64,000 nt of DNA, taken from sequence record MF327009, one strand, 5' to 3'. Positions 15,512-63,757 of the stretch are shown here, one piece after another. A model generated the notes under the pieces. It did not search any database, was not told where the DNA came from, and saw nothing but the letters and a program-made list of their open reading frames with translations. Made by a program: the position numbers and the translations under genes. Numbering within the stretch: position 1 is the stretch's first letter; the number at the start of each line of letters is the position of its first letter. This DNA comes from Shigella phage Sf25.

Positions 15512-15514
15512 GAT

Positions 15515-22460: not shown

Positions 22461-22465
22461 TCAAC

Positions 22466-22807
22466 TTATGCTTTCTGCTTACCAAAACGAGAAGCATCAT
22501 CTCGAAGAACCGCACGTGCTCGGCGCATGATCTTCTCAACAGTTTGATTGATACGAGAGTTCGACCCACGCTTGTAGCCAGCGCGTTTAGAATCACCAAC
22601 TTTCTTTTCAACTGCTTTCTTTGCTTTAGCTTGTTTTTTCTGCTTACCAAAACGAGAAGCATCATCTCGAAGAACCGCACGTGCTCGGCGCATGATCTTC
22701 TCAACAGTTTGATTGATACGAGAGTTCGACCCACGCTTGTAGCCAGCGCGTTTAGAATCACCAACTTTCTTTTCAACTGCTTTCTTTGCTTTAGCTTGTT
22801 TTGCCAT
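22466..22807 (-). CDS. small highly basic protein, expanded from about 58 to 113 aa by an in-frame 165-bp tandem duplication
   Basis: Translation MAKQAKAKKAVEKKVGDSKRAGYKRGSNSRINQTVEKIMRRARAVLRDDASRF with the 55-aa block repeated exactly. Confidence 0.55.
   Translation of the reverse strand: MAKQAKAKKAVEKKVGDSKRAGYKRGSNSRINQTVEKIMRRARAVLRDDASRFGKQKKQAKAKKAVEKKVGDSKRAGYKRGSNSRINQTVEKIMRRARAVLRDDASRFGKQKA
22472..22801. repeat. exact tandem duplication, 2 x 165 bp (22472-22636 and 22637-22801), in-frame
   Basis: Identical nucleotide units; boundary ambiguous by 1 bp. Confidence 0.9.
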
Positions 22808-25485: not shown

Positions 25486-26006
25486 GTTGATCCCAGCTCC
25501 TTACTTTCAACGTTTTTAACTAATTTGACAGAAACTAATTCGGCATCTTGGGTAATCATTACCGGGCCTTCTTCATACTCTTCAAGATATTCTAGAGCTT
25601 TCTTTTTAGCTTCTTCCTTCGTATCAGTTTGAGCATAGATATAGAACATACAACCAGTAATACCTACTACTTTCCACTTAATTTCTTTATCAGTTTTAAT
25701 TTCAAATTTACTGATAGAGTCATCTTTTTGAACTTCTTCGAAAAAATAATATTCTGACATATAAGTAATTGAAAATAACGGGCTATCTTTATAAGATTCG
25801 CCCATTACATCAACAGCTTTATACCAGCAGTCATCAATTTCACGTTTAATGCTAATAACATTTTTCGCAGAATCTATTTTTACTTTAAATGAATTTTCCC
25901 CAATAAACTTGGCAATTCGTTTATTAGCCCCGCAAGTTTCATTAAAAATATCTTTATATCCAGCTTTAAAGCGATAAACCTTATCTTCTTCAAACCATTT
26001 GCTCAT
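25479..26006 (-). CDS. hypothetical protein (175 aa), cd.3-like
   Basis: ORF track. Confidence 0.45.
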   Translation of the reverse strand: MSKWFEEDKVYRFKAGYKDIFNETCGANKRIAKFIGENSFKVKIDSAKNVISIKREIDDCWYKAVDVMGESYKDSPLFSITYMSEYYFFEEVQKDDSISKFEIKTDKEIKWKVVGITGCMFYIYAQTDTKEEAKKKALEYLEEYEEGPVMITQDAELVSVKLVKNVESKELGSTC

Positions 26007-28196: not shown

Positions 28197-28639
28197 TTAT
28201 CCTCTTTTAACTCTTGACGATAATAACATATCATAGTTTTCTGATCATGTACATATCGTTTTACATCATTAAGCCAAATGCGAAATTCCTGGGAATCTTC
28301 AAATGGCATACCGACCCAAGCTTTACCATCAATAACTTTAACTTGCCAGGATAGTTTAGCTTCATCGTATGACTTTATTTGTACTGGCCAATTAGGATGA
28401 ACTGTTTCTTTCTTTACTTCTAGAGGCTTTGTCGAACAACCAACTAGAAGACCAATAGATAATATTACCCAAGCTTTACCATCAATAACTTTAACTTGCC
28501 AGGATAGTTTAGCTTCATCGTATGACTTTATTTGTACTGGCCAATTAGGATGAACTGTTTCTTTCTTTACTTCTAGAGGCTTTGTCGAACAACCAACTAG
28601 AAGACCAATAGATAATATTACTGCTGATAGTTTAATCAT
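28187..28639 (-). CDS. putative lipoprotein, expanded from about 99 to 150 aa by an in-frame 153-bp tandem duplication
   Basis: Signal/lipobox-like LSIGLLVGC-S; the 51-aa block ILSIGLLVGCSTKPLEVKK...DGKAWV is repeated exactly, giving two lipobox copies. Confidence 0.5.
   Translation of the reverse strand: MIKLSAVILSIGLLVGCSTKPLEVKKETVHPNWPVQIKSYDEAKLSWQVKVIDGKAWVILSIGLLVGCSTKPLEVKKETVHPNWPVQIKSYDEAKLSWQVKVIDGKAWVGMPFEDSQEFRIWLNDVKRYVHDQKTMICYYRQELKEDKCK
28314..28619. repeat. exact tandem duplication, 2 x 153 bp (28314-28466 and 28467-28619), in-frame
   Basis: Identical nucleotide units. Confidence 0.9.
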
Positions 28640-32383: not shown

Positions 32384-34897
32384 TCATAATTTACAGGATG
32401 AACAATCTTCAGCTTTTGGAGTTTCTATTTCATAATCATCAGTACCAGAACCGTCACGGGTATTATGATAATAGAAATTTTTTCCGCCAAAATACCAAAA
32501 ATATAAAAGGTCATCAATCATTATTGACATTGGAACCTTTCCTTTTGGAAAAATCTGCGGGTCATAATATGTATTAGCTGAAGCTGATTGACATACCCAT
32601 TTCAGCATAATAGCTACTTGCGTAAGATAAGGTTTATTGCCTTTCTTAGCTAATTTCCACGTATAATCATAGAGGTCTATGTTATGCTCAATATTGGGCA
32701 CGACTTGATTAAAGGAACCCTCTTTTGATTCTTTAACAGAGACTGGTCCACGTGGAGGCTCGATACCGTTTGTACTGTTAGAAACTTGGGAAGATGACTC
32801 ACATGGCATAAGTGCTGATAATGTGCTATTACGGATGCCAAAGAGCTTAAGGTCTTCCCGCAGCGACGACCAGTCACAAACGTATTTTGGAGCTGCGATT
32901 TGGTCAATCTTTTTATTGTACCAGTCGATAGGTAATTCGCCTCGAGACCAACGAGTGTCTGAATAATATTCGCAAGGTCCTTTTTCTTTGGCGAGCTTAA
33001 TGGATGCTTTAATGAGTCCATACTGTAATCTCTCAAATAGTTCATGTGTTAAATCGTTAGCATCTTCATAAGAAGCAAAATTACTTGCCAGCCAAGCTGC
33101 ATAGTTAGTAACACCTACACCAAGATTTCGACGCTTTTTAGCTTTTTCTGCTTCAGGAACTGGATATCCTTGGTAATCCAAAAGATTATCAAGAGCACGA
33201 ACTTGGACTTCTGCCAATTCATTAATTTTATCTTGGTCTTGCCAATCAAAGTTATCTAACACAAATGCAGATAACGTACACAATCCAATTTCAGCATCAG
33301 GACTATTCACATCATTTGTTGGAATAGCAATTTCACAGCACAAGTTGCTCTGACGAATAGGTGCCTTTTCACGAATAAACGGAGTATAGTTATTCGTATT
33401 ATCTATGAACTGTACATAAATCCTTGCTGTTCCTGAGCGTTCAGTCATGAGCAATTCAAATAGTTCACGGGCTTTAATACGCTTTTTACGAATATTAGGG
33501 TCTTTTTCTGCTGCTTCGTATAATTCACGGAAACGGTCTTGGTCTTTAAAATAAGAATAATAAAGCTCGCCACCCATTTCATGCGGACTGAACAAAGTAA
33601 TGTAATCGTTCTTTCCGAATCGTTCCATCATCAAATCATTCAGCTGAACACCATAATCCATATGACGGATACGGTTTTCTTCTACACCTTTGTTATTTTT
33701 CAAAACGAGAAGATTTTCAACTTCCAAATGCCAAATAGGATAATAAGCAGTAGCAGCGCCGCCACGAATTCCACCCTGTGAGCATGATTTAACAGCAGTC
33801 TGAAAATGTTTCCAAAAAGGAATAACACCAGTATGGCGTACTTCACCTGTGCCAATCTTAGAACCTTCGGCACGAATCATACCAACGTTAATACCAATTC
33901 CATAATCCATATGACGGATACGGTTTTCTTCTACACCTTTGTTATTTTTCAAAACGAGAAGATTTTCAACTTCCAAATGCCAAATAGGATAATAAGCAGT
34001 AGCAGCGCCGCCACGAATTCCACCCTGTGAGCATGATTTAACAGCAGTCTGAAAATGTTTCCAAAAAGGAATAACACCAGTATGGCGTACTTCACCTGTG
34101 CCAATCTTAGAACCTTCGGCACGAATCATACCAACGTTAATACCAATTCCAGCGCGTTTGGAGATATATTCAACAATTGAAGCAGAAGCCTTATTGATAG
34201 ACTTTAATGAATCACCTGCTTCAATAACAACGCATGAACTAAACTGCCGAGTTGGAGTACGGCAACCAGCCATAATAGGAGTTGGCAGTGAAATCTGTCG
34301 AGTAGATACTGCTTCATAAAAACGGATAACGTGTTTTAATCTATCAACAGGTTCATCTTGATGCAATGCCATTCCAATAGTCATAAATGCAAACTGTGGA
34401 GTTTCATAAATTTGACCAGTGGTTTTATCTTTAACTAGATATTTTTCTTTTAATTGCATCGCCCCGGAATAAGTAAATTCCATATCCCGCTCGTGCTTAA
34501 TTTTTGATTCTAAAAATGTAATTTCTTCGGCAGAATATTTTGACAACAATTCAGGGTCATATTTACCTTCATTTACACAGTAAGAAATGTGGTCAATAAA
34601 TGAACGTGGTTCATACTGCCCATAAACATGCTTACGAAGAGCGAACATTAAACAGCGTGCAGCTACATATTGATAATCAGGCTCTTCAACTGAAATAGAA
34701 TTCGCAGCAGCCTTAATTACAATGGTTTGAATGTCATCAGTTGTCATTCCATCACGGAGATATGATTTAATATTTTCATATAATTCATAAGGATCTACAG
34801 ATGTTCCTTCAGCTGCCCAAGATAAAACTTTAATAATTTTTTGCGGGTCAAAGCTCTGAGAAACACCACTACTTTTGATAACATTAATTAATTGCAT
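32384..34897 (-). CDS. nrdA: ribonucleotide reductase large subunit carrying an in-frame 249-bp tandem duplication (837 aa versus 754 aa expected)
   Basis: MQLINVIKSSGVSQSFDPQKI...; 83-aa block GIGINVGMIRAEGSKIG...NRIRHMDY repeated exactly. Confidence 0.9.
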   Translation of the reverse strand: MQLINVIKSSGVSQSFDPQKIIKVLSWAAEGTSVDPYELYENIKSYLRDGMTTDDIQTIVIKAAANSISVEEPDYQYVAARCLMFALRKHVYGQYEPRSFIDHISYCVNEGKYDPELLSKYSAEEITFLESKIKHERDMEFTYSGAMQLKEKYLVKDKTTGQIYETPQFAFMTIGMALHQDEPVDRLKHVIRFYEAVSTRQISLPTPIMAGCRTPTRQFSSCVVIEAGDSLKSINKASASIVEYISKRAGIGINVGMIRAEGSKIGTGEVRHTGVIPFWKHFQTAVKSCSQGGIRGGAATAYYPIWHLEVENLLVLKNNKGVEENRIRHMDYGIGINVGMIRAEGSKIGTGEVRHTGVIPFWKHFQTAVKSCSQGGIRGGAATAYYPIWHLEVENLLVLKNNKGVEENRIRHMDYGVQLNDLMMERFGKNDYITLFSPHEMGGELYYSYFKDQDRFRELYEAAEKDPNIRKKRIKARELFELLMTERSGTARIYVQFIDNTNNYTPFIREKAPIRQSNLCCEIAIPTNDVNSPDAEIGLCTLSAFVLDNFDWQDQDKINELAEVQVRALDNLLDYQGYPVPEAEKAKKRRNLGVGVTNYAAWLASNFASYEDANDLTHELFERLQYGLIKASIKLAKEKGPCEYYSDTRWSRGELPIDWYNKKIDQIAAPKYVCDWSSLREDLKLFGIRNSTLSALMPCESSSQVSNSTNGIEPPRGPVSVKESKEGSFNQVVPNIEHNIDLYDYTWKLAKKGNKPYLTQVAIMLKWVCQSASANTYYDPQIFPKGKVPMSIMIDDLLYFWYFGGKNFYYHNTRDGSGTDDYEIETPKAEDCSSCKL
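33651..34148. repeat. exact tandem duplication, 2 x 249 bp (33651-33899 and 33900-34148), in-frame within nrdA
   Basis: Identical nucleotide units; boundary ambiguous by 3 bp. Confidence 0.9.
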
Positions 34898-34915: not shown

Positions 34916-35271
34916 TCGTCTTTAAACAATCGGTTAACTATATGAGCTATTATATCACCATGACACGGCTTTGGTTTACATGTGCATCCTAGCCTCATTC
35001 CACGTAAAGGCTCTAAATGTGCTTTAGTTATTTCTCCGGATTTAATTCGACGTATAAAATCTTTTTTGAATAATTCAATGGCAGCCTCCCGGCTCGTCTT
35101 TAAACAATCGGTTAACTATATGAGCTATTATATCACCATGACACGGCTTTGGTTTACATGTGCATCCTAGCCTCATTCCACGTAAAGGCTCTAAATGTGC
35201 TTTAGTTATTTCTCCGGATTTAATTCGACGTATAAAATCTTTTTTGAATAATTCAATGGCAGCCTCCCGGC
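34916..35271. repeat. exact tandem duplication, 2 x 178 bp (34916-35093 and 35094-35271), just upstream of the nrdA start
   Basis: Identical units; unit length not a multiple of 3; replaces the 3' end of the upstream ORF. Confidence 0.9.
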
Positions 35272-38440: not shown

Positions 38441-38887
38441 CTACTTTTTGAAAGTTTTTCGCAAAAGTTCAATGATTTCATCTACATTGTTTTCGTCAAC
38501 AATGCAGTGAATTTTTGTTACGCCAGAAACCTTGTCTATGACTTCATCTACATTGTTTTCGTCAACAATGCAGTGAATTTTTGTTACGCCAGAAACCTTG
38601 TCTTTGACTTCATCTTCTTCAGAAGTCGGTTCTTTATACTCACGAAAACAATGAAATTCATCTTCGCAAATTTCTAAAAGTCTATCTTTGAGGTAAAAAT
38701 GCTTTCCATTTGCGCATTCAATGTGTTTTACTGCTTTATATCCATTAGCGACGGAAACTTCTTTAACTTCAAACCATCCGCCATTATCTCGAATAGCTTT
38801 AACGATTGATGAATTAGAACGTGGGCTATAATTAATAAATGTATCAATAAGTCTTGGAACAAGTTCATACTTTTTGCCAATATACAT
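38441..38887 (-). CDS. hypothetical protein (148 aa) with an internal 22-aa tandem repeat
   Basis: ORF track; ...VKDKVSGVTKIHCIVDENNVDE VIDKVSGVTKIHCIVDENNVDE.... Confidence 0.45.
   Translation of the reverse strand: MYIGKKYELVPRLIDTFINYSPRSNSSIVKAIRDNGGWFEVKEVSVANGYKAVKHIECANGKHFYLKDRLLEICEDEFHCFREYKEPTSEEDEVKDKVSGVTKIHCIVDENNVDEVIDKVSGVTKIHCIVDENNVDEIIELLRKTFKK
38472..38615. repeat. near-exact tandem repeat, 66-bp unit, about 2.2 copies, 2 mismatches
   Basis: Position i matches i+66 across 38472-38549 except at 38476 and 38538. Confidence 0.8.
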
Positions 38888-40212: not shown

Positions 40213-40310
40213 TTTTATTTCCTTTTTAATTTAATTAACAGTTGGTGCTATGACGATGTATGACCTCATAGCTGGTCAGTGAGATAATTATAATCTATTT
40301 ATAATAAGCA
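40213..40310 (-). promoter_or_regulatory. gene 32 5' leader: AU-rich translational operator (UUAAAUUAAAAAGGAAAUAAAA-AUG) and a TATAAATA late-promoter match at 40296-40303
   Basis: Sequence read directly; gp32 autoregulation through such an operator is established for T4. Confidence 0.5.
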
Positions 40311-40311
40311 A

Positions 40312-42404: not shown

Positions 42405-45400
42405 ATGGCCGAGATTAAAAGAAAGTTCAGAGCAGAAGATGGTCTGGACGCAGGTGGTGATAAAATAATCAACGTAGCTTTAGCTGATCGTACCGTAGGA
42501 ACTGACGGTGTTAACGTTGATTACTTAATTCAAGAAAACACAGTTCAACAATATGATCCAACTCGTGGATATTTAAAAGATTTTGTAATCATTTATGATA
42601 ACCGCTTTTGGGCTGCTATAAATGATATTCCAAAACCGGCAGGAGCTTTTAATAGCGGACGCTGGAGAGCATTACGTACCGATGCTAACTGGATTACAGT
42701 CTCATCTGGTTCATATCAATTAAAATCTGGTGAAGCTATTTCGGTTAACACTGCAGCTGGTAATGATATTACATTTACTTTACCATCTACTCCAATTGAC
42801 GGTGATACTATCGTTCTCCAAGATATTGGAGGAAAACCTGGAGTTAACCAAGTTTTAATTGTAGCTCCAGTACAAAGTATTGTAAACTTTAGAGGTGAAC
42901 AGGTACGTTCAGTACTAATGACTCATCCAAAGTCACAGCTAGTTTTAATTTTTAGTAATCGTCTGTGGCAAATGTATGTTGCTGATTATAGTAGAGAAGC
43001 TATAGTTGTAACACCAGCAAGTCTCTATCAGGCGCAATCTAATGATTTTATCGTACGTAGATTTACTTCTGCTGCACCAATTAATGTTAAACTTCCAAGA
43101 TTTGCTAATCATGGCGATATTATTAATTTCGTTGATTTAGATAAACTGAATCCACTTTATCATACAATTGTTACTACATACGATGAAACGACTTCAGTAC
43201 AAGAAGTTGGAACTCATTCCATTGAAGGCCGTACATCGATTGACGGTTTCTTGATGTTTGATGATAATGAGAAATTGTGGAGATTGTTTGACGGGGATAG
43301 TAAAGCACGTTTACGTATCATAACGACTAATTCAAATATTCGTCCAAACGAAGAAGTTATGGTATTTGGTGCAAATAACGGAACAACTCAAACGATTGAG
43401 CTTCAGCTTCCAACTAATATTTCTGTTGGTGATACTGTTAAAATTTCCATGAATTACATGAGAAAAGGACAAACAGTTAAAATCAAAGCTGCAGGTGAAG
43501 ATAAAATTGCTTCTTCAGTTCAATTGCTGCAATTCCCAAAACGTTCAGAATATCCGCCTGAAGCTGAGTGGGTTACAGTTCAAGAATTAGTTTTTAACGG
43601 TGAAACTAATTATGTTCCAGTTTTACAGCTTGCTTATATAGAAGATTCTGATGGAAAATACTGGGTTGTACAGCAAAATGTTCCAACCGTAGAAAGAGTA
43701 GATTCTTTAAATGATTCTACTAGAGCAAGATTAGGCGTGATTGCTTTAGCTACACAAGCGCAAGCTAATGTCGATTTAGAAAATTCTCCGCAAAAAGAAT
43801 TAGCAATTACTCCAGAAACATTAGCTAACCGTACTGCTACAGAAACTCGTAGAGGTATCGCAAGAATAGCAACTACTGCTCAAGTGAATCAGAACACCAC
43901 ATTCTCTTTTGCTGATGATATTATCATTACTCCTAAAAAGCTGAATGAAAGAACTGCTACAGAAACTCGTAGAGGTGTTGCTGAAATTGCTACGCAACAG
44001 GAAACTAATGCAGGTACTGATGATACTACAATCATCACTCCTAAAAAGCTTCAAGCTCGACAAGGTTCTGAATCATTATCAGGTATTGTAACCTTTGTAT
44101 CTACCGCGGGAGCTACTCCAGCTTCTAGTCGTGAATTAAATGGTACAAACGTTTATAATAAAAACACTAATAATTTAGTTGTTTCGCCTAAAGCTCTAGA
44201 TCAGTATAAAGCTACTCCAACGCAGCAAGGTGCAGTAATTTTAGCAGTTGAAAGTGAAGTAATTGCTGGACAGAGCCAAGAAGGATGGGCAAATGCGGTT
44301 GTAACGCCAGAAACGTTACATAAAAAGACATCAACTGATGGAAGAATTGGATTAATTGAAATTGCTACACAGTCTGAAGTTAATACAGGAACTGATTATA
44401 CTCGTGCAGTCACTCCTAAAACTTTAAATGATCGTAAAGCAACTGAAAGTTTAAGTGGTATAGCAGAAATAGCAACACAAGTTGAATTCGACGCAGGCGT
44501 CGACGATACTCGTATCTCTACACCATTAAAAATTAAAACCAGATTTAATAGTACTGATCGTACTTCTGTTGTTGCTCTATCTGGATTAGTTGAATCAGGA
44601 ACTCTCTGGGACCATTATACCCTTAATATTCTTGAAGCAAATGAGACACAGCGTGGTACACTTCGTGTGGCTACACAAGTTGAAGCTGCTGCAGGAACAT
44701 TAGATAATGTTTTAATAACTCCTAAAAAGCTTTTAGGTACTAAATCTACCGAATCGCAGGAAGGTGTTATTAAAGTTGCAACACAAACTGAAACTGTTGC
44801 TGGTACATCATCTAATACTGCTGTATCTCCAAAGAATTTAAAATGGATCGTGCAGAGCGAACCTACTTGGGCAGCTACAACGGCTATAAGAGGATTTGTT
44901 AAAACTTCTTCTGGTTCTATTACTTTCGTTGGTAATGATACTGTTGGTTCAACACAACCTTTAGAATCATATGAAAAAAATAGCTATGCTATATCTCCAT
45001 ATGAATTAAACAGAGTATTAGCTAACTATTTACCATTAAAAGCCAAAGCAGTTGATAGTAATTTACTCGATGGTCTAGATTCACTCCAGTTCATTCGTAG
45101 GGACATCGCCCAGACAGTTAATGGATCACTAACCTTAACGCAACAAACGAATCTGAGTGCCCCTCTTGTATCATCTAGTACTGCTACGTTTGGTGGATCA
45201 GTTTCTGCTAATAGTACATTGACTATTTCTAACACAGGAACAGCTACTCGACTGATTTTTGAAAAAGGACCTCAGACTGGAACAAATCCGGCTCAAACGA
45301 TGACTATCAGAGTTTGGGGAAATGAGTTTGGAGGTGGTTCTGATACATCACGTTCAACTGTATTTGAAGTTGGTGATGAAACGTCTAATCACTTCTATTC

Positions 45401-46274
45401 GCAACGTAATAAAGCTGGTAATATTGTTTTCAGTATTAATGGTACTGTAATGCCAATAAATGTGAATGCTTCGGGTTCATTGAATGCTAATGGTGTTGCA
45501 ACATTTGGTAGTTCTGTTACTGCTAATGGTGAATTCATCAGTAAATCAGCAAATGCTTTTAGAGCAATAAATGGTGATTACGGATTCTTCATTCGTAATG
45601 ATGGTGGAAACACCTATTTCATGTTAACTGCTTCTGGTGATCAAACTGGTGGATTTAATGGATTAAGACCTTTAGCAATAAACAATACATCAGGTCAAGT
45701 TACAATCGGTGAAGGATTAATTGCAGCAAAAGGTGTTACGATAAATTCTGGTGGTTTGACTGTTAACTCGAGAATTCGTTCTCAAGGTTCTAAAACTGCT
45801 GATTTATATACTCGTGCTCCTACTGCTGATACAGTCGGATTCTGGTCAATTGACATTAATGATTCAGCTACATACAACCAATTCCCTGGTTATTTTAAAA
45901 TGGTTGAAAAAACTAATGAAGTGACTGGGCTTCCATACTTAGAACGTGGTGAAGAAGTTAAATCTCCTGGTACTTTGACTCAGTTTGGTAATACTCTTGA
46001 TTCACTTTACCAAGATTGGATTACTTATCCAATAACTCCTGAAGCACGTACAACCCGTTGGACACGTACTTGGCAGAAGAATAAAAATTCATGGTCAAGT
46101 TTTGTCCAAGTATTTGATGGTGGAAACCCTCCTCAACCTTCTGATATTGGTGCTTTACCTTCTGATAATGCAATAATCGGAAACTTGACAATAAGAGATT
46201 TCTTAAGGATTGGTAACGTCCGCATTATTCCAGATCCTGTGACTAAATCAGTTAAATTCGAGTGGATTGAATAA
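42405..46274 (+). CDS. 34: long tail fibre proximal subunit gp34
   Basis: 1289-aa ORF; recurring ITPKKL...TETRRG...IATQ motifs; length matches T4 gp34. Confidence 0.95.
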   Translation: MAEIKRKFRAEDGLDAGGDKIINVALADRTVGTDGVNVDYLIQENTVQQYDPTRGYLKDFVIIYDNRFWAAINDIPKPAGAFNSGRWRALRTDANWITVSSGSYQLKSGEAISVNTAAGNDITFTLPSTPIDGDTIVLQDIGGKPGVNQVLIVAPVQSIVNFRGEQVRSVLMTHPKSQLVLIFSNRLWQMYVADYSREAIVVTPASLYQAQSNDFIVRRFTSAAPINVKLPRFANHGDIINFVDLDKLNPLYHTIVTTYDETTSVQEVGTHSIEGRTSIDGFLMFDDNEKLWRLFDGDSKARLRIITTNSNIRPNEEVMVFGANNGTTQTIELQLPTNISVGDTVKISMNYMRKGQTVKIKAAGEDKIASSVQLLQFPKRSEYPPEAEWVTVQELVFNGETNYVPVLQLAYIEDSDGKYWVVQQNVPTVERVDSLNDSTRARLGVIALATQAQANVDLENSPQKELAITPETLANRTATETRRGIARIATTAQVNQNTTFSFADDIIITPKKLNERTATETRRGVAEIATQQETNAGTDDTTIITPKKLQARQGSESLSGIVTFVSTAGATPASSRELNGTNVYNKNTNNLVVSPKALDQYKATPTQQGAVILAVESEVIAGQSQEGWANAVVTPETLHKKTSTDGRIGLIEIATQSEVNTGTDYTRAVTPKTLNDRKATESLSGIAEIATQVEFDAGVDDTRISTPLKIKTRFNSTDRTSVVALSGLVESGTLWDHYTLNILEANETQRGTLRVATQVEAAAGTLDNVLITPKKLLGTKSTESQEGVIKVATQTETVAGTSSNTAVSPKNLKWIVQSEPTWAATTAIRGFVKTSSGSITFVGNDTVGSTQPLESYEKNSYAISPYELNRVLANYLPLKAKAVDSNLLDGLDSLQFIRRDIAQTVNGSLTLTQQTNLSAPLVSSSTATFGGSVSANSTLTISNTGTATRLIFEKGPQTGTNPAQTMTIRVWGNEFGGGSDTSRSTVFEVGDETSNHFYSQRNKAGNIVFSINGTVMPINVNASGSLNANGVATFGSSVTANGEFISKSANAFRAINGDYGFFIRNDGGNTYFMLTASGDQTGGFNGLRPLAINNTSGQVTIGEGLIAAKGVTINSGGLTVNSRIRSQGSKTADLYTRAPTADTVGFWSIDINDSATYNQFPGYFKMVEKTNEVTGLPYLERGEEVKSPGTLTQFGNTLDSLYQDWITYPITPEARTTRWTRTWQKNKNSWSSFVQVFDGGNPPQPSDIGALPSDNAIIGNLTIRDFLRIGNVRIIPDPVTKSVKFEWIE

Positions 46275-46282
46275 GAGGTATT

Positions 46283-47398
46283 ATGGAAAAATTTATGGCA
46301 GAGTTTGGACAAGGATATGTCCAAACTCCATTTTTATCGGAAAGCAATTCAGTAAGATATAAAATAAGTATAGCGGGTTCTTGCCCGCTTTCTACTGCAG
46401 GGCCTTATGTTAAATTTCAAGATAATCCTATTGGAAGTCAAACATTTAATGCAGGTCTTCATTTGAGAGTTTTTGATCCTACATCAGGGGCGTTAGTCGA
46501 TAGTAAATCATATGCATTTTCATCATCTAACGATACGACATCAGCTGCTTTTATTGATTTTATGAATTCAATTTCATCTAATAGAATAGTTGCTATATTA
46601 ACAAGTGGAAAAGTTAATTTCCCTCCTGAAGTAGTTTCTTGGTTAAGAACAGCAGGAACATCTGCTTTTCCATCTGATGCTATATTATCTAGATTTGATG
46701 TTTCATACGCAGCTTTTTACACTTCAGTAAAACGGGCAATCGCGTTAGAACACGTTAAATTAAGTAATAGAAAAAGCACAGATGATTATCAAACTATACT
46801 AGATGTAGTATTTGATAGCATAGAAGATGTTGGAGCAACAGGTTTTCCAAAAAGAACTTATGAAAGCGTTGAACAATTTATGTCAGCAGTTGGTGGAACA
46901 AATAATGAAATAGCGCGTTTACCTACTTCAGCCGCAATAAGTAAACTTTCTGACTACAATTTAATTCCTGGCGATGTTCTTTATCTTAAAGCACAGTTAT
47001 ATGCTGACGCAGATTTATTAGCATTAGGAACTACTAATATTTCAATTCGTTTTTATAACTCATCAAACGGATATATTTCTTCAACCCAAGCTGAATTTAC
47101 AGGACAGGCTGGATCTTGGGAATTAAAAGAGGATTATGTGGTTGTTCCAGAAAATGCAGTTGGATTTACGATATATGCACAGAGAACTGCTCAAGCAGGA
47201 CAAGGCGGCATGCGAAATTTAAGCTTTTCTGAAGTATCAAGAAATGGTGGAATTTCAAAACCCGCCGAGTTTGGTGTTAATGGTATTAGAGTTAATTATG
47301 TCTGTGAATCTGCTTCACCTCCTGATATAATGGTACTTCCAACACAATCGTCTACAAATACTGGAAAAGTTTTTGGACAAGAATTTAGAGAAGTTTAA
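46283..47398 (+). CDS. 35: long tail fibre hinge connector gp35
   Basis: 371-aa ORF; position and length as in T4. Confidence 0.9.
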   Translation: MEKFMAEFGQGYVQTPFLSESNSVRYKISIAGSCPLSTAGPYVKFQDNPIGSQTFNAGLHLRVFDPTSGALVDSKSYAFSSSNDTTSAAFIDFMNSISSNRIVAILTSGKVNFPPEVVSWLRTAGTSAFPSDAILSRFDVSYAAFYTSVKRAIALEHVKLSNRKSTDDYQTILDVVFDSIEDVGATGFPKRTYESVEQFMSAVGGTNNEIARLPTSAAISKLSDYNLIPGDVLYLKAQLYADADLLALGTTNISIRFYNSSNGYISSTQAEFTGQAGSWELKEDYVVVPENAVGFTIYAQRTAQAGQGGMRNLSFSEVSRNGGISKPAEFGVNGIRVNYVCESASPPDIMVLPTQSSTNTGKVFGQEFREV

Positions 47399-47403
47399 AC
47401 TGA

Positions 47404-47430
47404 GGGAGCCTTCGGGTTCCCTTTTTCTTT
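47404..47430 (+). terminator. rho-independent terminator after gene 35 (GGGAGCC-TTCG-GGTTCCC plus T-run)
   Basis: Stem-loop followed by tttttcttt. Confidence 0.65.
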
Positions 47431-47437
47431 ATAAATA
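47430..47437 (+). promoter_or_regulatory. late promoter TATAAATA upstream of gene 36
   Basis: Exact TATAAATA about 24 bp upstream of the gene 36 ATG. Confidence 0.65.
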
Positions 47438-47460
47438 CTATTAAAATAAAGGGGCATACA

Positions 47461-48126
47461 ATGGCTGATTTAAAAGTAGGTTCAACAACTGGAGGCTCTG
47501 TCATTTGGCATCAAGGAAATTTTCCATTGAATCCAGCCGGTGACGATGTACTCTATAAATCATTTAAAATATATACAGAATATAATAAACCACAAGCAGC
47601 TGATAACGATTTCGTTTCTAAAGCTAATGGTGGTACTTACGCTTCAAAGGTAACATTTAACGGTGGCGTGCAAATACCATATGCTATAAACAATACAAAC
47701 CAAAGCGGTATTTTTCCTGGTAATGGTGATGCTGCTACTTTTGCTACAGCAAATATTGATATTGTTTCATGGTATGGCATTGGTTTTAAATCATCACAAG
47801 GATCTGCAGGTAGAACTGTAGTAATTAATGCACGTAATGGCGATATTAGCACAAAAGGCGTTGTATCTGCTTCAGGACAAGTAAGAAGCGATATGACTGC
47901 TCCAGTTGCAGCAAATGATCTCACAAGAAAAGATTATGTTGATGGAGCAATAAATATTGTTACGGATAACGCAAATTCACGTGTATTGCGTAGAGGCGAT
48001 ACTATGACTGGAAATTTAACAGCTCCAAACTTTTTCTCACAGAATCCAGCGTCTCAACCTTCACATGTTCCACGATTTGATCAAATTGTTATTAAGGATT
48101 CTGTTCAAGATTTCGGCTATTATTAA
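47461..48126 (+). CDS. 36: long tail fibre distal connector gp36
   Basis: 221-aa ORF; length matches T4 gp36. Confidence 0.9.
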   Translation: MADLKVGSTTGGSVIWHQGNFPLNPAGDDVLYKSFKIYTEYNKPQAADNDFVSKANGGTYASKVTFNGGVQIPYAINNTNQSGIFPGNGDAATFATANIDIVSWYGIGFKSSQGSAGRTVVINARNGDISTKGVVSASGQVRSDMTAPVAANDLTRKDYVDGAINIVTDNANSRVLRRGDTMTGNLTAPNFFSQNPASQPSHVPRFDQIVIKDSVQDFGYY

Positions 48127-48134
48127 GAGGACTT

Positions 48135-51100
48135 ATGGCTACTTTAAAACAAATACAATTTAAAAGAAGCAAAACTGCAGGTCAACGTCCTGCTGCTTCA
48201 GTATTAGCCGAAGGTGAATTGGCTATAAACTTAAAAGACCGTACTCTTTTTACTAAAGATGACTCGGGAAATATTATTGATTTAAGCATTTCTGCCGGTG
48301 GTAACATTAGTGGAAATATCACTCAAAATGGTGATTATTTACAAAACGGCACGTATAATCTTAATGGAAATCAGTTTGTTTATGCAGGAAAGTATATTGA
48401 ATTCTTGCCAAAAACTGCTGGAAATGGTGCTTGGGCAAATCAGCACACAAATAAAGCTCCAATTTTCACCGATTTGAGTTCAACTACTTCAACTTCTGAA
48501 TATCATCCGCTAATTAAACAACGTTATAAAGATGGAACGTTTTCATTAGGGACTTTAGTTTCTGAAGGCTCAATGAAGATACACTATATCGATGAAACTG
48601 GCACTTCAAAATATTGGACTTTCCGACGTGATGGTGGTTTTGTTGTTGATAGTGGTAGTTTAACTGTTACTGCTGGAAACATATCTGCTTCAGGCAATAT
48701 TAATTCGGCATCAGGGGTTGTTTCAGCTCCTCAAATTAATACAAAAACCATTGTTTTAGATACAAAAGCATTTGGACAATATGATTCGCAGTCATTAGTT
48801 CAGTATGTTTATCCTGGCACTGGCGAAACAAACGGTATAAACTATCTTCGTAAAGTTCGCGCAAAATCAGGTGGTACAATTTATCATGAAATAGCTTCAG
48901 CTCAAAGTGGAAAAAGCGATGAAATTTCGTGGTGGACTGGAAATACAGCCGTTAATAAACAAATGGGTCTTCGTAATGATGGTGCAATGGTATTACGTCG
49001 TTCACTTGCTATTGGCACAATTACTACAGATGAAAACGTAAATAACTATGGATCTGCTGGAGCAATGGGAGAAAAATACATTGTTCTTGGAGATGCGTCA
49101 ACTGGACTAGCTTATAAAAAGACAGGAGTTTATGACTTAGTTGGTAGTGGTTTATCTGTTGCTTCTATCACTCCCGACAGTTTTCGTAGTACCCGTAAAG
49201 CAATTTTTGGACGTTCTGAAGACCAAGGCGGTACATGGCTTCTTCCTGGTCAAAACGCTGCTCTTCTTTCAGTTCGTACAGATATTGATCAAAATAATAA
49301 CGGTGATGGTCAAACTCATATTGGATATAATAGTAACAGCAAGTTTTATCATTATTTTAGAGGCAGAGGCCGAATGGCTGTTGGAATGGCTGAAGGTCTT
49401 ATTGTTGAGCCTGGAATTTTAGATATTAAAACTGGTTCAAATACTGTTTCTATTAGAGCTGATGGCGGAATTTCATCTACTCAGCGTCTTTCATTGCAGA
49501 ATGGTATATTTTTATCTTCTGACGGAAATAACAACGGTATATCGTTTAAAGCTTCTAGCAGTATAGATGGAACTAAAACTCTTAATTGGGATGCTGGTAC
49601 TCGTGCAGGTCAAAACAAAAATACAGTAATTTTAAAAGCATGGGGAAATTCATTTAATACAAGTGGTGGAACTGATAGACATACTGTATTTGAAGTTTCT
49701 GATTCGCAAGGATACTACTTTTATGCTCAACGTACTACCCCTGCATCCGGTCAAACAGTAGGTCCTATTAATTTTAAATTTAATGGTACTGTAGAAACCG
49801 GTCATATCAATGGATTAGGTAATATTACTTTATCTGGGGCAGTTATAGCAGATTCTGCTAATATTAAAGGACCGCTAAAAATATCTAATGCTAATACAGC
49901 TGATGCTTTTAGAATATGGAACGCTGAATATGGAGCCATTTTCCGTCGTTCAGAAACATCATTGCATATTATTCCTACACTTAAAGATGCAGGGGAAAAT
50001 GGTGGAATAAGTAATCTTCGCCCATTAAGTATTGATCTTTCAAACGGATTTGTGCAAATGCATCATTCTCTTTCTGTGGGGAATACAGTAAGAACGAATG
50101 GATTGTTTGCTGTGGATACTTCAGCTGCTCTTGTTGCAATTAACAGATGTTCCTATTGTGAAACAAAGATACGTTCAAGGGAATAGCACCTATTCATTAG
50201 GTACTTTAATTAATGGTGGTGATTTCCGTTTACATTACCATGAAGGCGGTGACAGTTCTTCAACAGGTGCAGTTATAAAAGATATTTCCTGGGAATTTAA
50301 ACGTAATGGTGATTTCTATTCGCCAGGTCGTTTACGTACAGGAAATATCTATATTGGAACTGATGGTAATATCACGGGTGGTTCTGGTAACTTTGCTAAC
50401 TTGAATACAACTTTAAACCGTAAAGTTAATTCTGGTTTTATTACTTATGGAGCAACTGCAGGTTGGTACAAGTTTGCAACAGTAACAATGCCTCAAGCTA
50501 CATCAACCGTTTCAATTACAGTCACTGGCGGAAATGGATTTAATTCTGGATCATTTAATCAGTGTGCAATTTCTGAAATTGTTCTTCGTACAGGAAACAA
50601 TAATCCTCTGGTGATACATATGACATTTATGTTAATATGGGAACATATGCTAATCAGTTGATATTTAACTATAGTTCTGTTGATAATGCCACAGTTCAAA
50701 TTATTGGCGCATTCAGTTCAGCTCAAAATCCTGTTGATGCATTGCCAGAAACATATGTTAAAGGTCAGGTAGCAGATGTATTGACTAACTTAGTTGATTC
50801 TGGAAAAACGAAGCGTTTTGTTGCTGAATCTGAAATAGCTATTAATAATCAAACTGGATTACGTATTACGAGTAATGGTGATAAATCTGGTTCAAATTCA
50901 GTATTATTCAGAAATGATGGATCAGCGTTTTATATTCTTTTAACAGATAAAAACGCAGCAGATGGAAATACGACTGCCACAGAAGGAGATTGGAATGGTA
51001 AACGTCCTTTCCAAATTAATATGACTTCTGGTGAAGTAACATTCGGAAATAATATTAATATTTCTGGAAACGGAAGCATTACTTGGACAAAAGCCGGAGC

Positions 51101-51770
51101 AAACCCTAGAAATATGAGAATATTTCATGCAGGTGATGCTTCTCGTGGTAACCGTATTGAAATCGCAGATGATACTAATTATATTGCTTACTTTGAAAAA
51201 ACTCCAGGTGGAGCTAACCGCTTTGTAGTTAATGGTGCTACTGTAGCTGGTGTTAATCAAATGAATTCATTTGGTATTAACATCAATAACGCGCTTGGTG
51301 GAAATAGTATAGCATTTGGTGATAATGACACGGGTATTAAGCAAAACGGCGATGGATTATTAGACATTTATGCGAATGGTGTGCAAACGTTCCGTTTCCA
51401 AAACGGTGATTTGTACTCATATAAAAATATAAATGCCCCAAACGTTTATATTCGTTCTGATATTCGCTTAAAATCTAATTTCAAACCTATCGAAAATGCA
51501 CTTGATAAAGTTGAAAAACTCAATGGTGTCATTTATGATAAAGCTGAATATATCGGTGGAGAGGCAATTGAAACTGAAGCGGGTATTGTGGCTCAAACGT
51601 TACAAGACGTTTTACCAGAAGCCGTCCGTGAAACAGAAGACAGCAAGGGTAATAAAATACTCACTGTTTCTTCTCAAGCCCAGATTGCTCTTCTGGTTGA
51701 AGCTGTGAAAACGCTTTCTTCTCGTGTAAAAGAACTTGAATCTAAACTTCTTGAATCTAAACTTATGTAA
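48135..51770 (+). CDS. 37: long tail fibre distal subunit gp37, T2-type with C-terminal intramolecular chaperone domain; reading frame broken twice (about 50140-50160 and 50604-50615)
   Basis: Three consecutive ORFs in three frames (48135-50186, 50098-50661, 50637-51770), all gp37-like: [37 protein letters not shown]...; [34 protein letters not shown]; C-terminal SDIRLKSNF...VKELESKL. Confidence 0.8.
51456..51767 (+). other. peptidase S74-type intramolecular chaperone / self-cleavage domain at the gp37 C-terminus
   Basis: Motif RSDIRLK followed by a coiled-coil-like tail; domain assignment by recollection of the family. Confidence 0.55.
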
Positions 51771-51800: not shown

Positions 51801-52498
51801 ATGGCAATTGTAGGTGTTCCTGGCTGGATTGGTGAATCTGCCGTGAATGAAACAGGACAGCGTTGGATGGATGCTGCAATGAGAGCAGTCCGTGTTTCAG
51901 TTCCCGGTTGGATGAGCTCAATGGCCGGACAATCTAAAGAAGTATATTATAGCATTGGTGCTAGTAATTCTTATAATAAAGATACATTAATAAACTGAAT
52001 GCATACGTGACACTTAATATCAATTCAGGCGTGCATGTTTGGGGCCGTGGCGGGAATGGCGGAAATAACTCTGCCGGTGGAGCAGGAGGAACTGCAATAA
52101 ATAATGGAATTGGAACTAGATTGCGTATTAACAACAATGGTGTTATCGCAGGAGGCGGTGGCGGCGGTGGAGGCGGATATTATTCTCCTTTTTCACAAAT
52201 GAAATTGACTTTTGGCGGTGGCGGCGGTCGTCCATTTGGTGCTGCTGGCGGGTCTGCTAATATGGAACAGGGCGCTACTGCTGGTACTATTTCTGCACCT
52301 GGTAAAGGGTCTGTCAATGGTATCTATAATGGCGGGAATGGCGGTGATGCTGGTGCCGCAGGTGGTAAATGTAATATTCGTGGGCAAGGATCAGAATATA
52401 ACGGCGGTGCGGCCGGTAAAGCTGTTACTGGTAATGCTCCAACTTGGACTAAGGTTGGTACAATATATGGCCCTCTGATATTCTATTTGGTGTTCTAG
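51801..52498 (+). CDS. 38: gp38 receptor-recognising adhesin (T2-type, glycine-rich islands); split by a frameshift near 51980-51996
   Basis: ORF 51801-51998 (MAIVGVPGWIGESAVNETGQRWM...) and ORF 52007-52498 in another frame with GGGGGGGGG islands; the second frame is open back to 51980. Confidence 0.75.
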
Positions 52499-53100
52499 AT
52501 CGCTTGTTCAAAGATAACGCTACCGGGAAAGTTCTTGCTTCCCGGGTAGCTGTCGTAATTCTTTTATTTATGATGGCGATTGTTTGGTATAGGGGAGATA
52601 GTTTCTTTGAGTACTATAAGCAATCAAAGTATGAAACATACAGTGAAATTATTGAAAAGGAAAGAAATGCACGCTTTGAATCTGTCGCCCTGGAACAACT
52701 CCAGATAGTTCATATATCATCTGAGGCAGACTTTAGTGCGGTGTATTCTTTCCGCCCTAAAAACTTAAACTATTTTGTTGATATTATAGCATACGAAGGA
52801 AGATTACCTTCAACAATAACTGAAAAATCACTTGGAGGATATCCTGTTGATAAAACTATGGATGAATATATAGTTCATTTAAATGGACGTCATTATTATT
52901 CTGACTCAAAATTTGCTTTTTTACCAACTAAAAAGCCTACTCCCGAAATAAACTACATGTACAGTTGTCCATATTTTAATTTGGATAATATCTATGCTGG
53001 AACGATAACCATGTACTGGTATAGAAATGATCATATAAGTAATGACCGCCTTGAATCAATATGTGCTCAGGCGGCCAGAATATTAGGAAGGGCTAAATAA
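52467..53100 (+). CDS. t: holin T; the ATG at 52467 is out of frame with the body (in-frame body 52453-53100, first canonical start TTG 52504)
   Basis: Body (WPS)DILFGVLDRLFKDNATGKVLASRVAVVILLFMMAIVWYRGDSFFEYY matches recalled T4 T residues 11-218; ATG GCC is followed by a stop in its own frame. Confidence 0.75.
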
Positions 53101-61330: not shown

Positions 61331-63757
61331 TTAGGCCGCAAGGGCCTTCATAGTTTTAGCGATTTGAGAAACTTCATCATCACTTAAAGAGTTGCGATAA
61401 CCGATGAAGTCGGAAACAATACGGAATTTCTTGGTAAACTCAGCAACCATTTTATCACTGTTTTTTGAAGCATTATTTGATAATACATCAAAAAGATTAG
61501 TTACTGTCCAGATGTCATGACCGATGGTACCTTTTCCACCGTTGAAATATACGCCCCGCAATGAACTAACTATATTAGCGAGTCGTGTATATTCTTCAGA
61601 AACTTCATCTGTACTGAAGTACTTCATCATAAAATCTAGTTCAGGATACTTGATAATTTTATCAATATATCGTTGAGCTGAACTTGAATAACCTACGTAC
61701 TTATCATAATCTACATCATCAAAAGCATCTACATATAAATCACGCAGAGTTTCAAAAATACATTGGCACTGACCGAGTTCTTTTACCTTTTTCTGCAAAA
61801 GCGGACGAATAACATAAAATTCATTAATGCCAATAAGATTAGCCATACGAATCAAAATATTCATAGATGGATGACAAAGAGATGTAGTACCATCCATAGA
61901 GAAAATATCAGAACGATGCATATACGCTACATAACCAGTAATTTCATCTGCTTCTGATGTGAGCGTAAACAGTTCCTCTTTTTCCCATCGCCCATCTTTA
62001 ATTTCAAACTTAAATGCTGTAGCAGCTTTAGGACGAGGAGCTTTACTTTTAACTACCTTTGGAATATAGCTTTTAACTAAAGCTTCAATTTCTGACAAAT
62101 AATGAATGTTAACTTCATCACTTTCAAACATCGCCATAATATCAGGAAGTAAATCAATCTGCGATTCTACTTCTGGATTAATAAACAGAAGACGCTCATT
62201 GTGATGAATATTCAAAGTGTTATTAAATTCACTATCATCTAACGCATGTGCTAATCCACGAACAATATTAACACGATTTTTAATATTATCAATAACGATA
62301 TTAATTTTTGTTGTATTAATACCAAACAGACGATAACTTGATGCAACGGCTGAAGTTTCATGACTTTGCTTAATGCGTTTCAGTCGAGGGTCAAGATTTA
62401 CTTCATACACAACTCCTGCATTGCATAACTTACTGTCAGGTTCAAACATGCTCTGCATCTTTTTATATGACAGATTTTTAGTCGTGAATTTGACTGAATT
62501 ACTAATCATATAATCTCGAGCAGAATATCCCATCTTCATCAATTCACGATATGTGTGACGAGGAGATGTAGATTCTTTAAATCGTTTTACATCTTCATTG
62601 AATGCCTTCTCACTAAGCTCTTTAACACGCTCAATAATATTTTTACGAGTACGATCATCTAGTGAAAGAGCTTCGCGTGATGGAGCAATATCAAGTGAAC
62701 CCATTGGAAACTTAATGTAATTCACTTCATTGCGAATGCTTAGCCAGTTACGGTCTCTAATAACACCATCGATAGGATAAACAATACCGCCATAGATAGC
62801 ATATAATCCACCACGATCAGGCCAGTATCTTTCTGGATTTACACCATAATAATCATCAAAATCAGGAAAATAATCAATTTCAATAATATTTTTACGAGTA
62901 CGATCATCTAGTGAAAGAGCTTCGCGTGATGGAGCAATATCAAGTGAACCCATTGGAAACTTAATGTAATTCACTTCATTGCGAATGCTTAGCCAGTTAC
63001 GGTCTCTAATAACACCATCGATAGGATAAACAATACCGCCATAGATAGCATATAATCCACCACGATCAGGCCAGTATCTTTCTGGATTTACACCATAATA
63101 ATCATCAAAATCAGGAAAATAATCAATTTCGCGGTCAAGACCATTAATGATAGCCAAATCTTTGAACGGTCGCATGATATAAGAAACTTCATAAGCAAAG
63201 TTTCTAAAGTCTTTTTCTTCAACTGGAACTACGATTTCAATACCAGTTTTATCATCTGGACCCATTTCTTTTACGAATGTAGGTTTAATCTGTGGGCCAT
63301 CACCATCCATGTAAGCTACATAACCACGAATTTCACCTTTATGATACGAAGTAATACTAAACGTATCAGTATAACTAAACGGAGATTTAGAACCTAAACC
63401 AAATCCGCCAATAAAGTCATTAGATTCAGCCTTAGATGAACTGAAGTATGAATTATACAGCCCAGGAGAATTATCATCACCCTGAATATCAAAATCACTC
63501 ATACCCGGACCAAAATCTCGACAAACAAATCGTGGATCTAATCGTCCTGGAACTTGAATGATAAATTTTTCAGGATTTCCATTAAGTGCATGAGCATCAA
63601 TCATGTTAGTAATCAATTCACGGACTACTGCGCGAATCTTGTTTGTATACAAATCAGATGACAGAATTTTAAATACTTTAGGATTTGCTGCGATGCTAAA
63701 TGCTTTTGATTTAGAACCATTGCCAAGAATTGTTTCTTTTTCAGTGGTGATAATCAT
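61331..63757 (-). CDS. rIIA: rIIA protein carrying an in-frame 249-bp tandem duplication (808 aa versus 725 aa expected)
   Basis: [20 protein letters not shown]...; 83-aa block [24 protein letters not shown]...TRKNIIE repeated exactly. Confidence 0.9.
62631..63128. repeat. exact tandem duplication, 2 x 249 bp (62631-62879 and 62880-63128), in-frame within rIIA
   Basis: Identical nucleotide units. Confidence 0.9.

Follow-up and report, generated by a model that had tools for sequence, protein, structure and literature searches.

Gene 37 in the sequence record of a T4-like phage is broken by two gaps that probably reflect corrupted sequence

In the window analyzed here, i.e., the whole 64,000-nucleotide stretch of Shigella phage Sf25 DNA (record MF327009), the gene for the distal long tail fibre subunit (g37) is interrupted by two gaps of 173 and 70 bp. 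These belong to a window-wide series of at least 15 clean gaps or exact duplications of 70–249 bp, and we therefore favor faulty sequence over biology: very probably, the lesions entered the written sequence later, as an artefact of assembly or processing. In the phage itself, gp37 is most likely normal and about 1290 amino acids long. The original prediction had implied a defect specific to gene 37. This was not supported: the genes for the adhesin (g38) and the holin (t), among others, were affected alike.

Judged from sequence similarity, the window is a natural segment of a Tequatrovirus (T4-like phage) most similar to Shigella phage Sf24, and its g37/g38 region is a T2-type module of an ordinary kind that resembles Sf24 and includes one small, novel mosaic block. 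The gene order g34-g35-g36-g37-g38-t-asiA is the same as in the Tequatrovirus phages Sf24 (gp37 AUV63109.1, gp99) and PinkRuby (gp37 XNS39872.1). We sized the gaps in g37 by MAFFT alignment and anchor mapping against these two phages. The features of g37 and of the genes preceding it are as follows.

42405–46274, g34, upstream in the tail-fibre module
46283–47398, g35, upstream in the tail-fibre module
47461–48126, g36, directly before g37
48135–51770, + strand, gene 37, T2-type distal long tail fibre subunit, interrupted as written; assigned from its position after g36 and 98% DNA identity, in three pieces, to g37 of PinkRuby and Sf24
48135–50146, + strand, g37 segment A in frame 0, corresponding to nt 1–2012 of Sf24 g37
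50146/50147, + strand, junction D1 in g37, where 173 bp (57 codons + 2 nt) are absent compared with Sf24 and PinkRuby
50147–50606, + strand, g37 segment B in frame +1, 152 codons by translation
50606/50607, + strand, junction D2 in g37, where 70 bp (23 codons + 1 nt) are absent compared with Sf24 and PinkRuby
50607–51770, + strand, g37 segment C, again in frame 0, with the Peptidase_S74 chaperone domain, about 98–99% identical to Sf24
51735–51764, + strand, perfect 15-bp in-frame tandem duplication at the g37 end (CTTGAATCTAAACTT twice), an insertion compared with Sf24 and PinkRuby

Instead of the single ORF of about 1290 codons expected for gp37, g37 as written contained three, i.e., 48135–50186 (683 aa), 50098–50661 (187 aa) and 50637–51770 (377 aa). 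The peptide motifs quoted in the original prediction were found where it had placed them, and it was right that a full-length distal fibre cannot be encoded: ORF1 reads 13 out-of-frame codons past D1 and stops at 50184–50186, short of the tip that binds gp38 and of the C-terminal chaperone domain. Its estimate for the first break, about 170 bp or 58 residues, came close to the 173 bp measured. The second break, which it had put down to an indel of 1–2 bp, turned out to be the 70-bp gap. Also, only two reading frames were used rather than the three proposed, as the starts of ORF1 and ORF3 are divisible by three and ORF2 lies at +1. ORF3 is back in the frame of ORF1 because the two gaps sum to 243 bp, i.e., 81 codons. 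When these 243 bp were restored from the Sf24 sequence, we obtained one ORF of 1292 aa with zero internal stops. At D1, two bases each of two different codons meet (AAC AG/AT GTT), with 0 bp of microhomology; at D2, CC/ abuts a codon boundary, with 1 bp.

The assignment of g37 to the T2 type was borne out by its Peptidase_S74 C-terminus, present in place of a T4-type receptor-binding tip (Pfam PF13884, E = 8e-16, residues 284–341 of the 387-aa translation of 50607–51767 in segment C, about 51456–51629), followed by an adhesin gene with Gp38_N and GP38 domains. In distal fibres of the T2/T6 type, the gp37 C-terminus is cleaved and capped by a gp38 adhesin of about 260 aa (Trojet et al. 2011, PMC3157838). 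The window has this architecture at the level of its sequence, i.e., g37 with a C-terminal intramolecular chaperone domain and then Gp38_N with a glycine-rich GP38. Unlike in T2/T6-type systems, however, both g37 and g38 are incomplete ORFs as written.

The stretch 45135–50146, which includes g37 segment A, was 99.5% identical to Sf24 and gap-free. Identity to Sf24 was only about 80% in the first ~200 bp of segment B, where the best record reached 87% (phage FL12), and the last ~260 bp were near-identical to Sf24 again. Sf24 and PinkRuby share about 98% g37 DNA identity with the window, the same C-terminal Peptidase_S74 and the same gp38 adhesin type, but their g37 genes are single ORFs of 3864 bp, whereas g37 of the window lacks 173 + 70 bp and has in addition the 15-bp duplication and a divergent block of about 200 bp after D1. 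The duplication was crossed by none of five references, and phage slur04 likewise lacks it, as judged from span lengths. In Escherichia phage teqskov, which has a T4-type tip, the first 2012 nt of g37 were 99.8% identical to the window and this match ended exactly at D1; past that point teqskov has a C-terminus of the T4 type and a gp38 chaperone of 183 aa, whereas the window turns to T2-type sequence.

At the protein level, a search with the 152-aa middle part of g37 found two weak relatives only (75% and 55% identity). We sought an intact parent of the divergent block after D1 with a 50-mer and a 29-mer and obtained no match. Exact products of the truncated 683-aa gp37, of gp34 and of gp29 were looked up as well and none was on record; the same lookup with gp35 returned a Logan contig whose g37/g38/t is intact but different.

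Downstream of g37, the adhesin and holin genes were broken as follows.

51801–52469, + strand, gene 38, T2-type adhesin (Pfam Gp38_N + GP38), broken by D3, 3' end lost at D4
51997/51998, + strand, junction D3 in g38, where 103 bp are absent
52469/52470, + strand, junction D4 at the g38 end and t start, where 72 bp are absent
52470–53100, + strand, holin gene t without its start, residues 10–218 present (tblastn query 10–218, 100% identity)

Pfam searches with the g38 fragments placed Gp38_N at 51801–51995 and GP38 at 51998–52495 (PF21721, E = 3e-19, and PF05268, E = 2e-44, on the two fragments), and identified the holin as Phage_holin_T (E = 8e-114). The D4 gap takes the final g38 codons and stop, the intergenic ribosome-binding site, and the t start codon with the first nine codons. 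With the 103 and 72 bp re-inserted, gp38 had 261 aa and the holin 218 aa. The best phage records over D3 and D4 were all split into three pieces.

A single class of lesion ran through the whole window, irrespective of gene function, codon phase and essentiality. Nine gaps of 70–173 bp lay in inh/hoc, gp31, gp33/gp59, g37 (twice), g38, g38/t, ac and ndd.2a/ndd.4; the one in gp31 removes the C-terminus and stop, that in gp33/gp59 the gp33 stop and the N-terminal 52 aa of gp59. Microhomology did not exceed 2 bp at any of the nine. Six perfect 2.0-copy tandem duplications of 202, 165, 153, 249, 178 and 249 bp were located in 24.3, 30.9, pseT.2/.3, nrdA, nrdA.1 and rIIA, respectively. TRF gave a 100% copy match for all six; in a separate repeat search, the 165-bp pair came out in another register, at 98%. 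Event lengths were divisible by three in 6 of 15 cases, i.e., at chance level, and some recurred (249/249, 173/173 and 72/72; P about 0.02). The placement of the 15 events fits random positions. A hotspot in g37-g38-t was rejected, as four events in 2.4 kb have P = 0.16 under random placement; gene 37 was hence no special target. Genes 31, 33, 37, 38 (in T2-type phages) and t are essential according to established T4 genetics, and all of them are disabled within this one 64-kb stretch as written. Smaller error-like lesions were also seen: 30.1 and 30.2 are frameshifted by single-base losses in a T6 run and an A6 run, and a gap of 29 bp takes out the gp26 Shine-Dalgarno sequence together with the gene 51 late promoter TATAAATA.

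For a census of the junctions, we required 15-bp anchors on both sides. References were Sf24, PinkRuby, KRT47, teqskov and one Logan contig, plus, for about 21–42 kb of the window, six further contigs, i.e., intact relatives found via NrdB. The 15 large-lesion junctions were placed at 1124, 2395, 22629, 23433, 28466, 33899, 35093, 40811, 50146, 50606, 51997, 52469, 57631, 58615 and 62879, and none of them was crossed by any reference covering its position. Six junctions were checked against 50,697 phage records and were absent; the best matches listed were all in pieces, their flanks reaching up to 100% identity. No phage record spanned D1 or D2 in one piece, and the exact D1 junction 43-mer gave no hit in contig collections of viruses, metagenomes and genomes.

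The point differences from Sf24 had a different character. Over the window, 591 differing codons were synonymous and 128 nonsynonymous, with 79% of the differences at third positions; the synonymous to nonsynonymous counts were 33:1 in g38 and 30:16 in g37. Relaxed selection on the remaining coding sequence, the mark of a natural deletion pseudogene, was not seen. As the point differences are mostly synonymous, we conclude that the genes were under purifying selection until the lesions arose.

If the lesions were real, the window would derive from a defective, heavily rearranged T4-like genome, perhaps a non-viable variant complemented by a co-infecting helper in a mixed population, or metagenome DNA from dead particles, and gene 37 would indeed be unable to yield a fibre. 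T-even phages generate deletions and duplications by illegitimate recombination, the written sequence is internally consistent with high-quality flanks, and D1 and D3 lie at mosaic boundaries. We nevertheless consider this origin unlikely, because fifteen large events in 64 kb would knock out 31, 33/59, 37, 38 and t together, in genes that are broken without relaxed selection and at junctions found in no other record searched. Moreover, the ends of spontaneous T4 deletions are typically short direct repeats, whereas the junctions found here have minimal microhomology, and the duplicated copies are essentially identical. Less probable still are physical lesions in a massively rearranged, replication-dependent defective T-even genome that had undergone dozens of deletions and duplications of 70–250 bp and survived solely by complementation in a mixed population, with gene 37 as one casualty among many. 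We also see little chance that the gaps represent natural length variation in a hypervariable fibre gene, a mosaic allele in which a tiny sequencing error alone breaks the frame. The g37/g38 locus is the most plastic one of T4-type phages (PMC3157838), the sequence that follows D1 is mosaic and divergent, and two single-base homopolymer errors occur elsewhere in the window. The codon phases of D1 and D2, however, misfit an in-frame variant, which would require an additional indel right at either joint. The flanks of D2 and D4 are both 99–100% Sf24-like, unlike allele boundaries. Among 691 records matching g37 none had the lengths of the window allele, and no intact g37 lacking the same 57 + 23 codons was found.

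Two compensating recoding events, +1 near 50146 and −1 near 50606, might in principle yield full-length gp37, as the two shifts cancel, the ORFs overlap at 50098–50186 and 50637–50661, and frame 0 is open from 50604. Two random lengths, however, total a multiple of three in one third of cases, and 57 and 23 codons conserved in relatives are missing at the very sites. We found no X_XXY_YYZ slippery heptamer in phase in either overlap region (50098–50186 and 50604–50661), and the junctions are conserved in no relative. Identical-looking gaps elsewhere delete start codons, stop codons and promoters. The resemblance of g37 to the translational bypass of T4 gene 60 is superficial and limited to an ORF that goes on in a different frame; g37 differs in having no conserved signal or slippery site, in the loss of conserved codons, and in that other genes and non-coding signals are hit too. 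We regard recoding as extremely improbable.

We therefore return to corruption of the written sequence, and infer that the DNA of the phage itself would be free of these lesions. Candidate causes are mis-assembly, contig joining without overlap or gap resolution, faulty consensus or polishing, and in-silico editing. Such corruption would have left clean gaps of 70–173 bp and exact tandem duplications of 153–249 bp at positions that fit random placement, and two of the gaps would have landed in gene 37, shifting the frame by +1 and then back. If contigs had simply been abutted, duplications would be unmerged overlaps and gaps unfilled holes, which leaves the repeated lengths of 249, 173 and 72 bp unaccounted for. 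As counterpoints to an artefact, no unbroken version of this exact phage was found in any collection, and the sequence changes from Sf24-like to other-like right at D1 and D3; these two could be real recombination joints.

At face value, the record describes a T4-like phage without functional fibre, adhesin and holin, i.e., a puzzling non-viable genome, and in its broken state it would mislead host-range prediction and annotation. Since the breaks in gene 37 appear to be part of a window-wide corruption, re-assembly or flagging of the record is called for, rather than interpretation. The distinction used here, small substitutions shaped by selection as opposed to large events that ignore it, may serve as a reusable triage for other finds of broken genes.

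Gene 37 (g37, the distal long tail fibre subunit gene) lies in the window, a Tequatrovirus (T4-like) segment, in the order g34, g35, g36, g37, g38, t, asiA, where g38 encodes the adhesin and t the holin. As written, g37 is divided into three ORFs:

42405-46274, g34
46283-47398, g35
47461-48126, g36
48135-50186, g37 ORF1, 683 aa
50098-50661, g37 ORF2, 187 aa
50637-51770, g37 ORF3, 377 aa

In contrast, the nearest deposited genes, g37 of Escherichia phage PinkRuby and Shigella phage Sf24 (~98% DNA identity), are one 3864-bp ORF each, and they aligned with the window in three pieces (3615 bp of window versus 3858 bp of record). In Pfam, the C-terminus of g37 matched the Peptidase_S74 intramolecular chaperone domain, and 3′ of g37 came Gp38_N and GP38 adhesin domains followed by holin T. 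These domains of the g37 C-terminus and g38 uphold the T2-type label of the original prediction, whose quoted peptide motifs were also found in the g37 region. The g37-g38 domain order agrees with the T2/T6 fibre arrangement (Trojet et al. 2011, PMC3157838).

Gaps in the fibre genes were sized by MAFFT alignment and exact anchor mapping:

50146/50147, D1, 173 bp (57 codons + 2 nt) missing in g37
50606/50607, D2, 70 bp (23 codons + 1 nt) missing in g37
51997/51998, D3, 103-bp gap breaking g38 (T2-type adhesin), within 51801-53100
52469/52470, D4, 72-bp gap, g38 end/t start

The prediction of a g37 broken twice was right about the breaks, and its estimate for D1 (~170 bp, ~58 residues) was accurate, but the second break and the frame count were misdescribed: D2 is a 70-bp gap instead of a 1-2 bp indel, and two frames are used instead of three, ORF1 and ORF3 having starts divisible by 3 and ORF2 lying at +1. 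The last g37 segment is back in the frame of the first because 173 + 70 = 243 bp, i.e., 81 codons. Putting back both Sf24 segments alone yielded a single 1292-aa ORF with zero internal stops. As written, ORF1 encodes 670 native and 13 out-of-frame residues, and its product would have neither the gp38-binding tip nor the chaperone domain; going by what is established about gp37 assembly, a functional fibre could therefore not form from the sequence as written. D4 takes out the g38 end with its stop, the ribosome-binding site between g38 and t, and the t start codon with the first nine codons; restoring the D3 and D4 segments gave a gp38 of 261 aa and a holin of 218 aa. The last g37 codons (51735-51764) also hold a perfect 15-bp in-frame tandem duplication that is not in Sf24, PinkRuby, the other references or slur04, and which could be natural or a smaller-scale lesion of the same kind.

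We compared each annotated Sf24 protein with the window and chained the nucleotide sequence against Sf24. Besides the fibre genes, many window genes match their Sf24 counterparts only in cut-short, frame-shifted or partly duplicated form. The window contains nine clean gaps, five of them beyond the fibre genes, and six perfect 2.0-copy tandem duplications, none of the latter found in any relative examined:

923-1124 / 1125-1326, 202-bp duplication, 24.3
2395, 133-bp gap, inh C-terminus / hoc N-terminus lost
22465-22629 / 22630-22794, 165-bp duplication, 30.9
23433, 72-bp gap, gp31 C-terminus and stop lost
28314-28466 / 28467-28619, 153-bp duplication, pseT.2/.3
33651-33899 / 33900-34148, 249-bp duplication, nrdA, in frame
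34916-35093 / 35094-35271, 178-bp duplication, nrdA.1
40811, 173-bp gap, gp33 stop and gp59 residues 1-52 lost
57631, 134-bp gap, ac
58615, 130-bp gap, ndd.2a/ndd.4
62631-62879 / 62880-63128, 249-bp duplication, rIIA, in frame

These 15 large events span 70 to 249 bp, with lengths that recur (249/249, 173/173, 72/72; P ~0.02 under a uniform model). Their placement is compatible with random positions (four in 2.4 kb, P = 0.16); g37 is no special target, simply a long gene. The original interpretation stands in part: the written g37 cannot yield its product, but the defect is no biological feature particular to this gene.

Smaller irregularities were seen as well. Relative to Sf24, KRT47 and teqskov, one base is lost in a T6 run at ~19450 (30.1 frameshift) and one in an A6 run at ~19824 (30.2 frameshift), both of which look like homopolymer errors. 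A 29-bp gap between gp26 and gp51 (6817) removes the gp26 Shine-Dalgarno sequence (reverse strand) together with the late-promoter box TATAAATA that precedes gene 51. In frd.2 (38469-38615), a 66-bp repeat of 2.2 copies is imperfect (97% identity), unlike the six perfect duplications, and its junction was crossed ungapped by none of the references.

Differences common to the window and at least one relative were classed as natural mosaics. These comprise an extra ORF of ~515 bp relative to Sf24 (25489-26004), also present in KRT47 (gp213) and teqskov; the missing homing endonuclease segG between gp32 and gp59 (40275-40311), likewise in KRT47 and teqskov; a single gp121/122 paralogue rather than two; and some small intergenic indels. 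Two intact tandem alt (ADP-ribosyltransferase) paralogues of ~41% mutual identity (13457-17608) also occur in Sf24 and KRT47. None of the 15 large events was crossed by the covering references (Sf24, PinkRuby, KRT47, teqskov and a Logan contig), nor were those at ~21-42 kb by six further contigs. In a collection of 50,697 phage records, the best matches listed for the D1/D2, D3/D4, gp59 and nrdA junction regions were always split, with flanks up to 100% identical, in the gp59 case including T4. The 43-mer across D1 was not found in viral, metagenome or genome contig collections, and no record was found of the truncated 683-aa product.

Of the codons that differ from Sf24, 591 are synonymous and 128 nonsynonymous (g37 30:16, g38 33:1), and 79% of base differences fall at third positions. 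As codon differences are mostly synonymous, ordinary purifying selection acted on the lineage, broken genes included. The large events, unlike the point differences, show no filtering by selection: only 6/15 lengths are divisible by 3, and the lesions take out start codons, stop codons and promoters and disable genes 31, 33, 37, 38 and t. In established T4 genetics 31, 33, 37 and t count as essential, as does 38 in T2-type phages.

We consider it most economical, and very probable, that the lesions entered the sequence after the biology. They could stem from mis-assembly, from contigs joined with overlaps left unmerged (which would give exact duplications) or holes left unfilled (which would give gaps), from a consensus or polishing step that went wrong, or from sequence editing; the homopolymer losses fit an error-prone data source. 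A truly defective genome kept by complementation is unlikely, given the many lethal hits at once, duplicated copies that are essentially identical, no sign of relaxed selection, and gap junctions without microhomology (≤2 bp at all nine, including the five beyond the fibre genes).

That g37 is a natural shorter allele with small errors is more doubtful still, since D1 and D2 both join inside codons and Sf24-like sequence lies on both sides of D2. Programmed recoding to make gp37 seems hardly credible: conserved codons are gone at the break sites, a slippery heptamer was not found, and the sites are not kept in relatives.

The first 2012 nt of g37 are 99.8% identical to teqskov, and the C-terminal part with the chaperone domain is near-identical to Sf24. 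Between them, a ~200-bp block (~50175-50345) is ~80% identical to Sf24 and without a close match (best deposited phage FL12, 87%; viral, metagenome and genome contig collections gave zero exact 29-mer matches); this block has the look of a new mosaic piece in the shaft of the fibre. The gp38 adhesin combines PinkRuby and Sf24 sequence in a mosaic, and D1 and D3 each fall at a switch from Sf24-like to other-like sequence. We conclude that the breakage of g37 is very probably not a real biological feature and that the distal fibre of Sf25 is probably Sf24-like, T2-type and ~1290 residues long.
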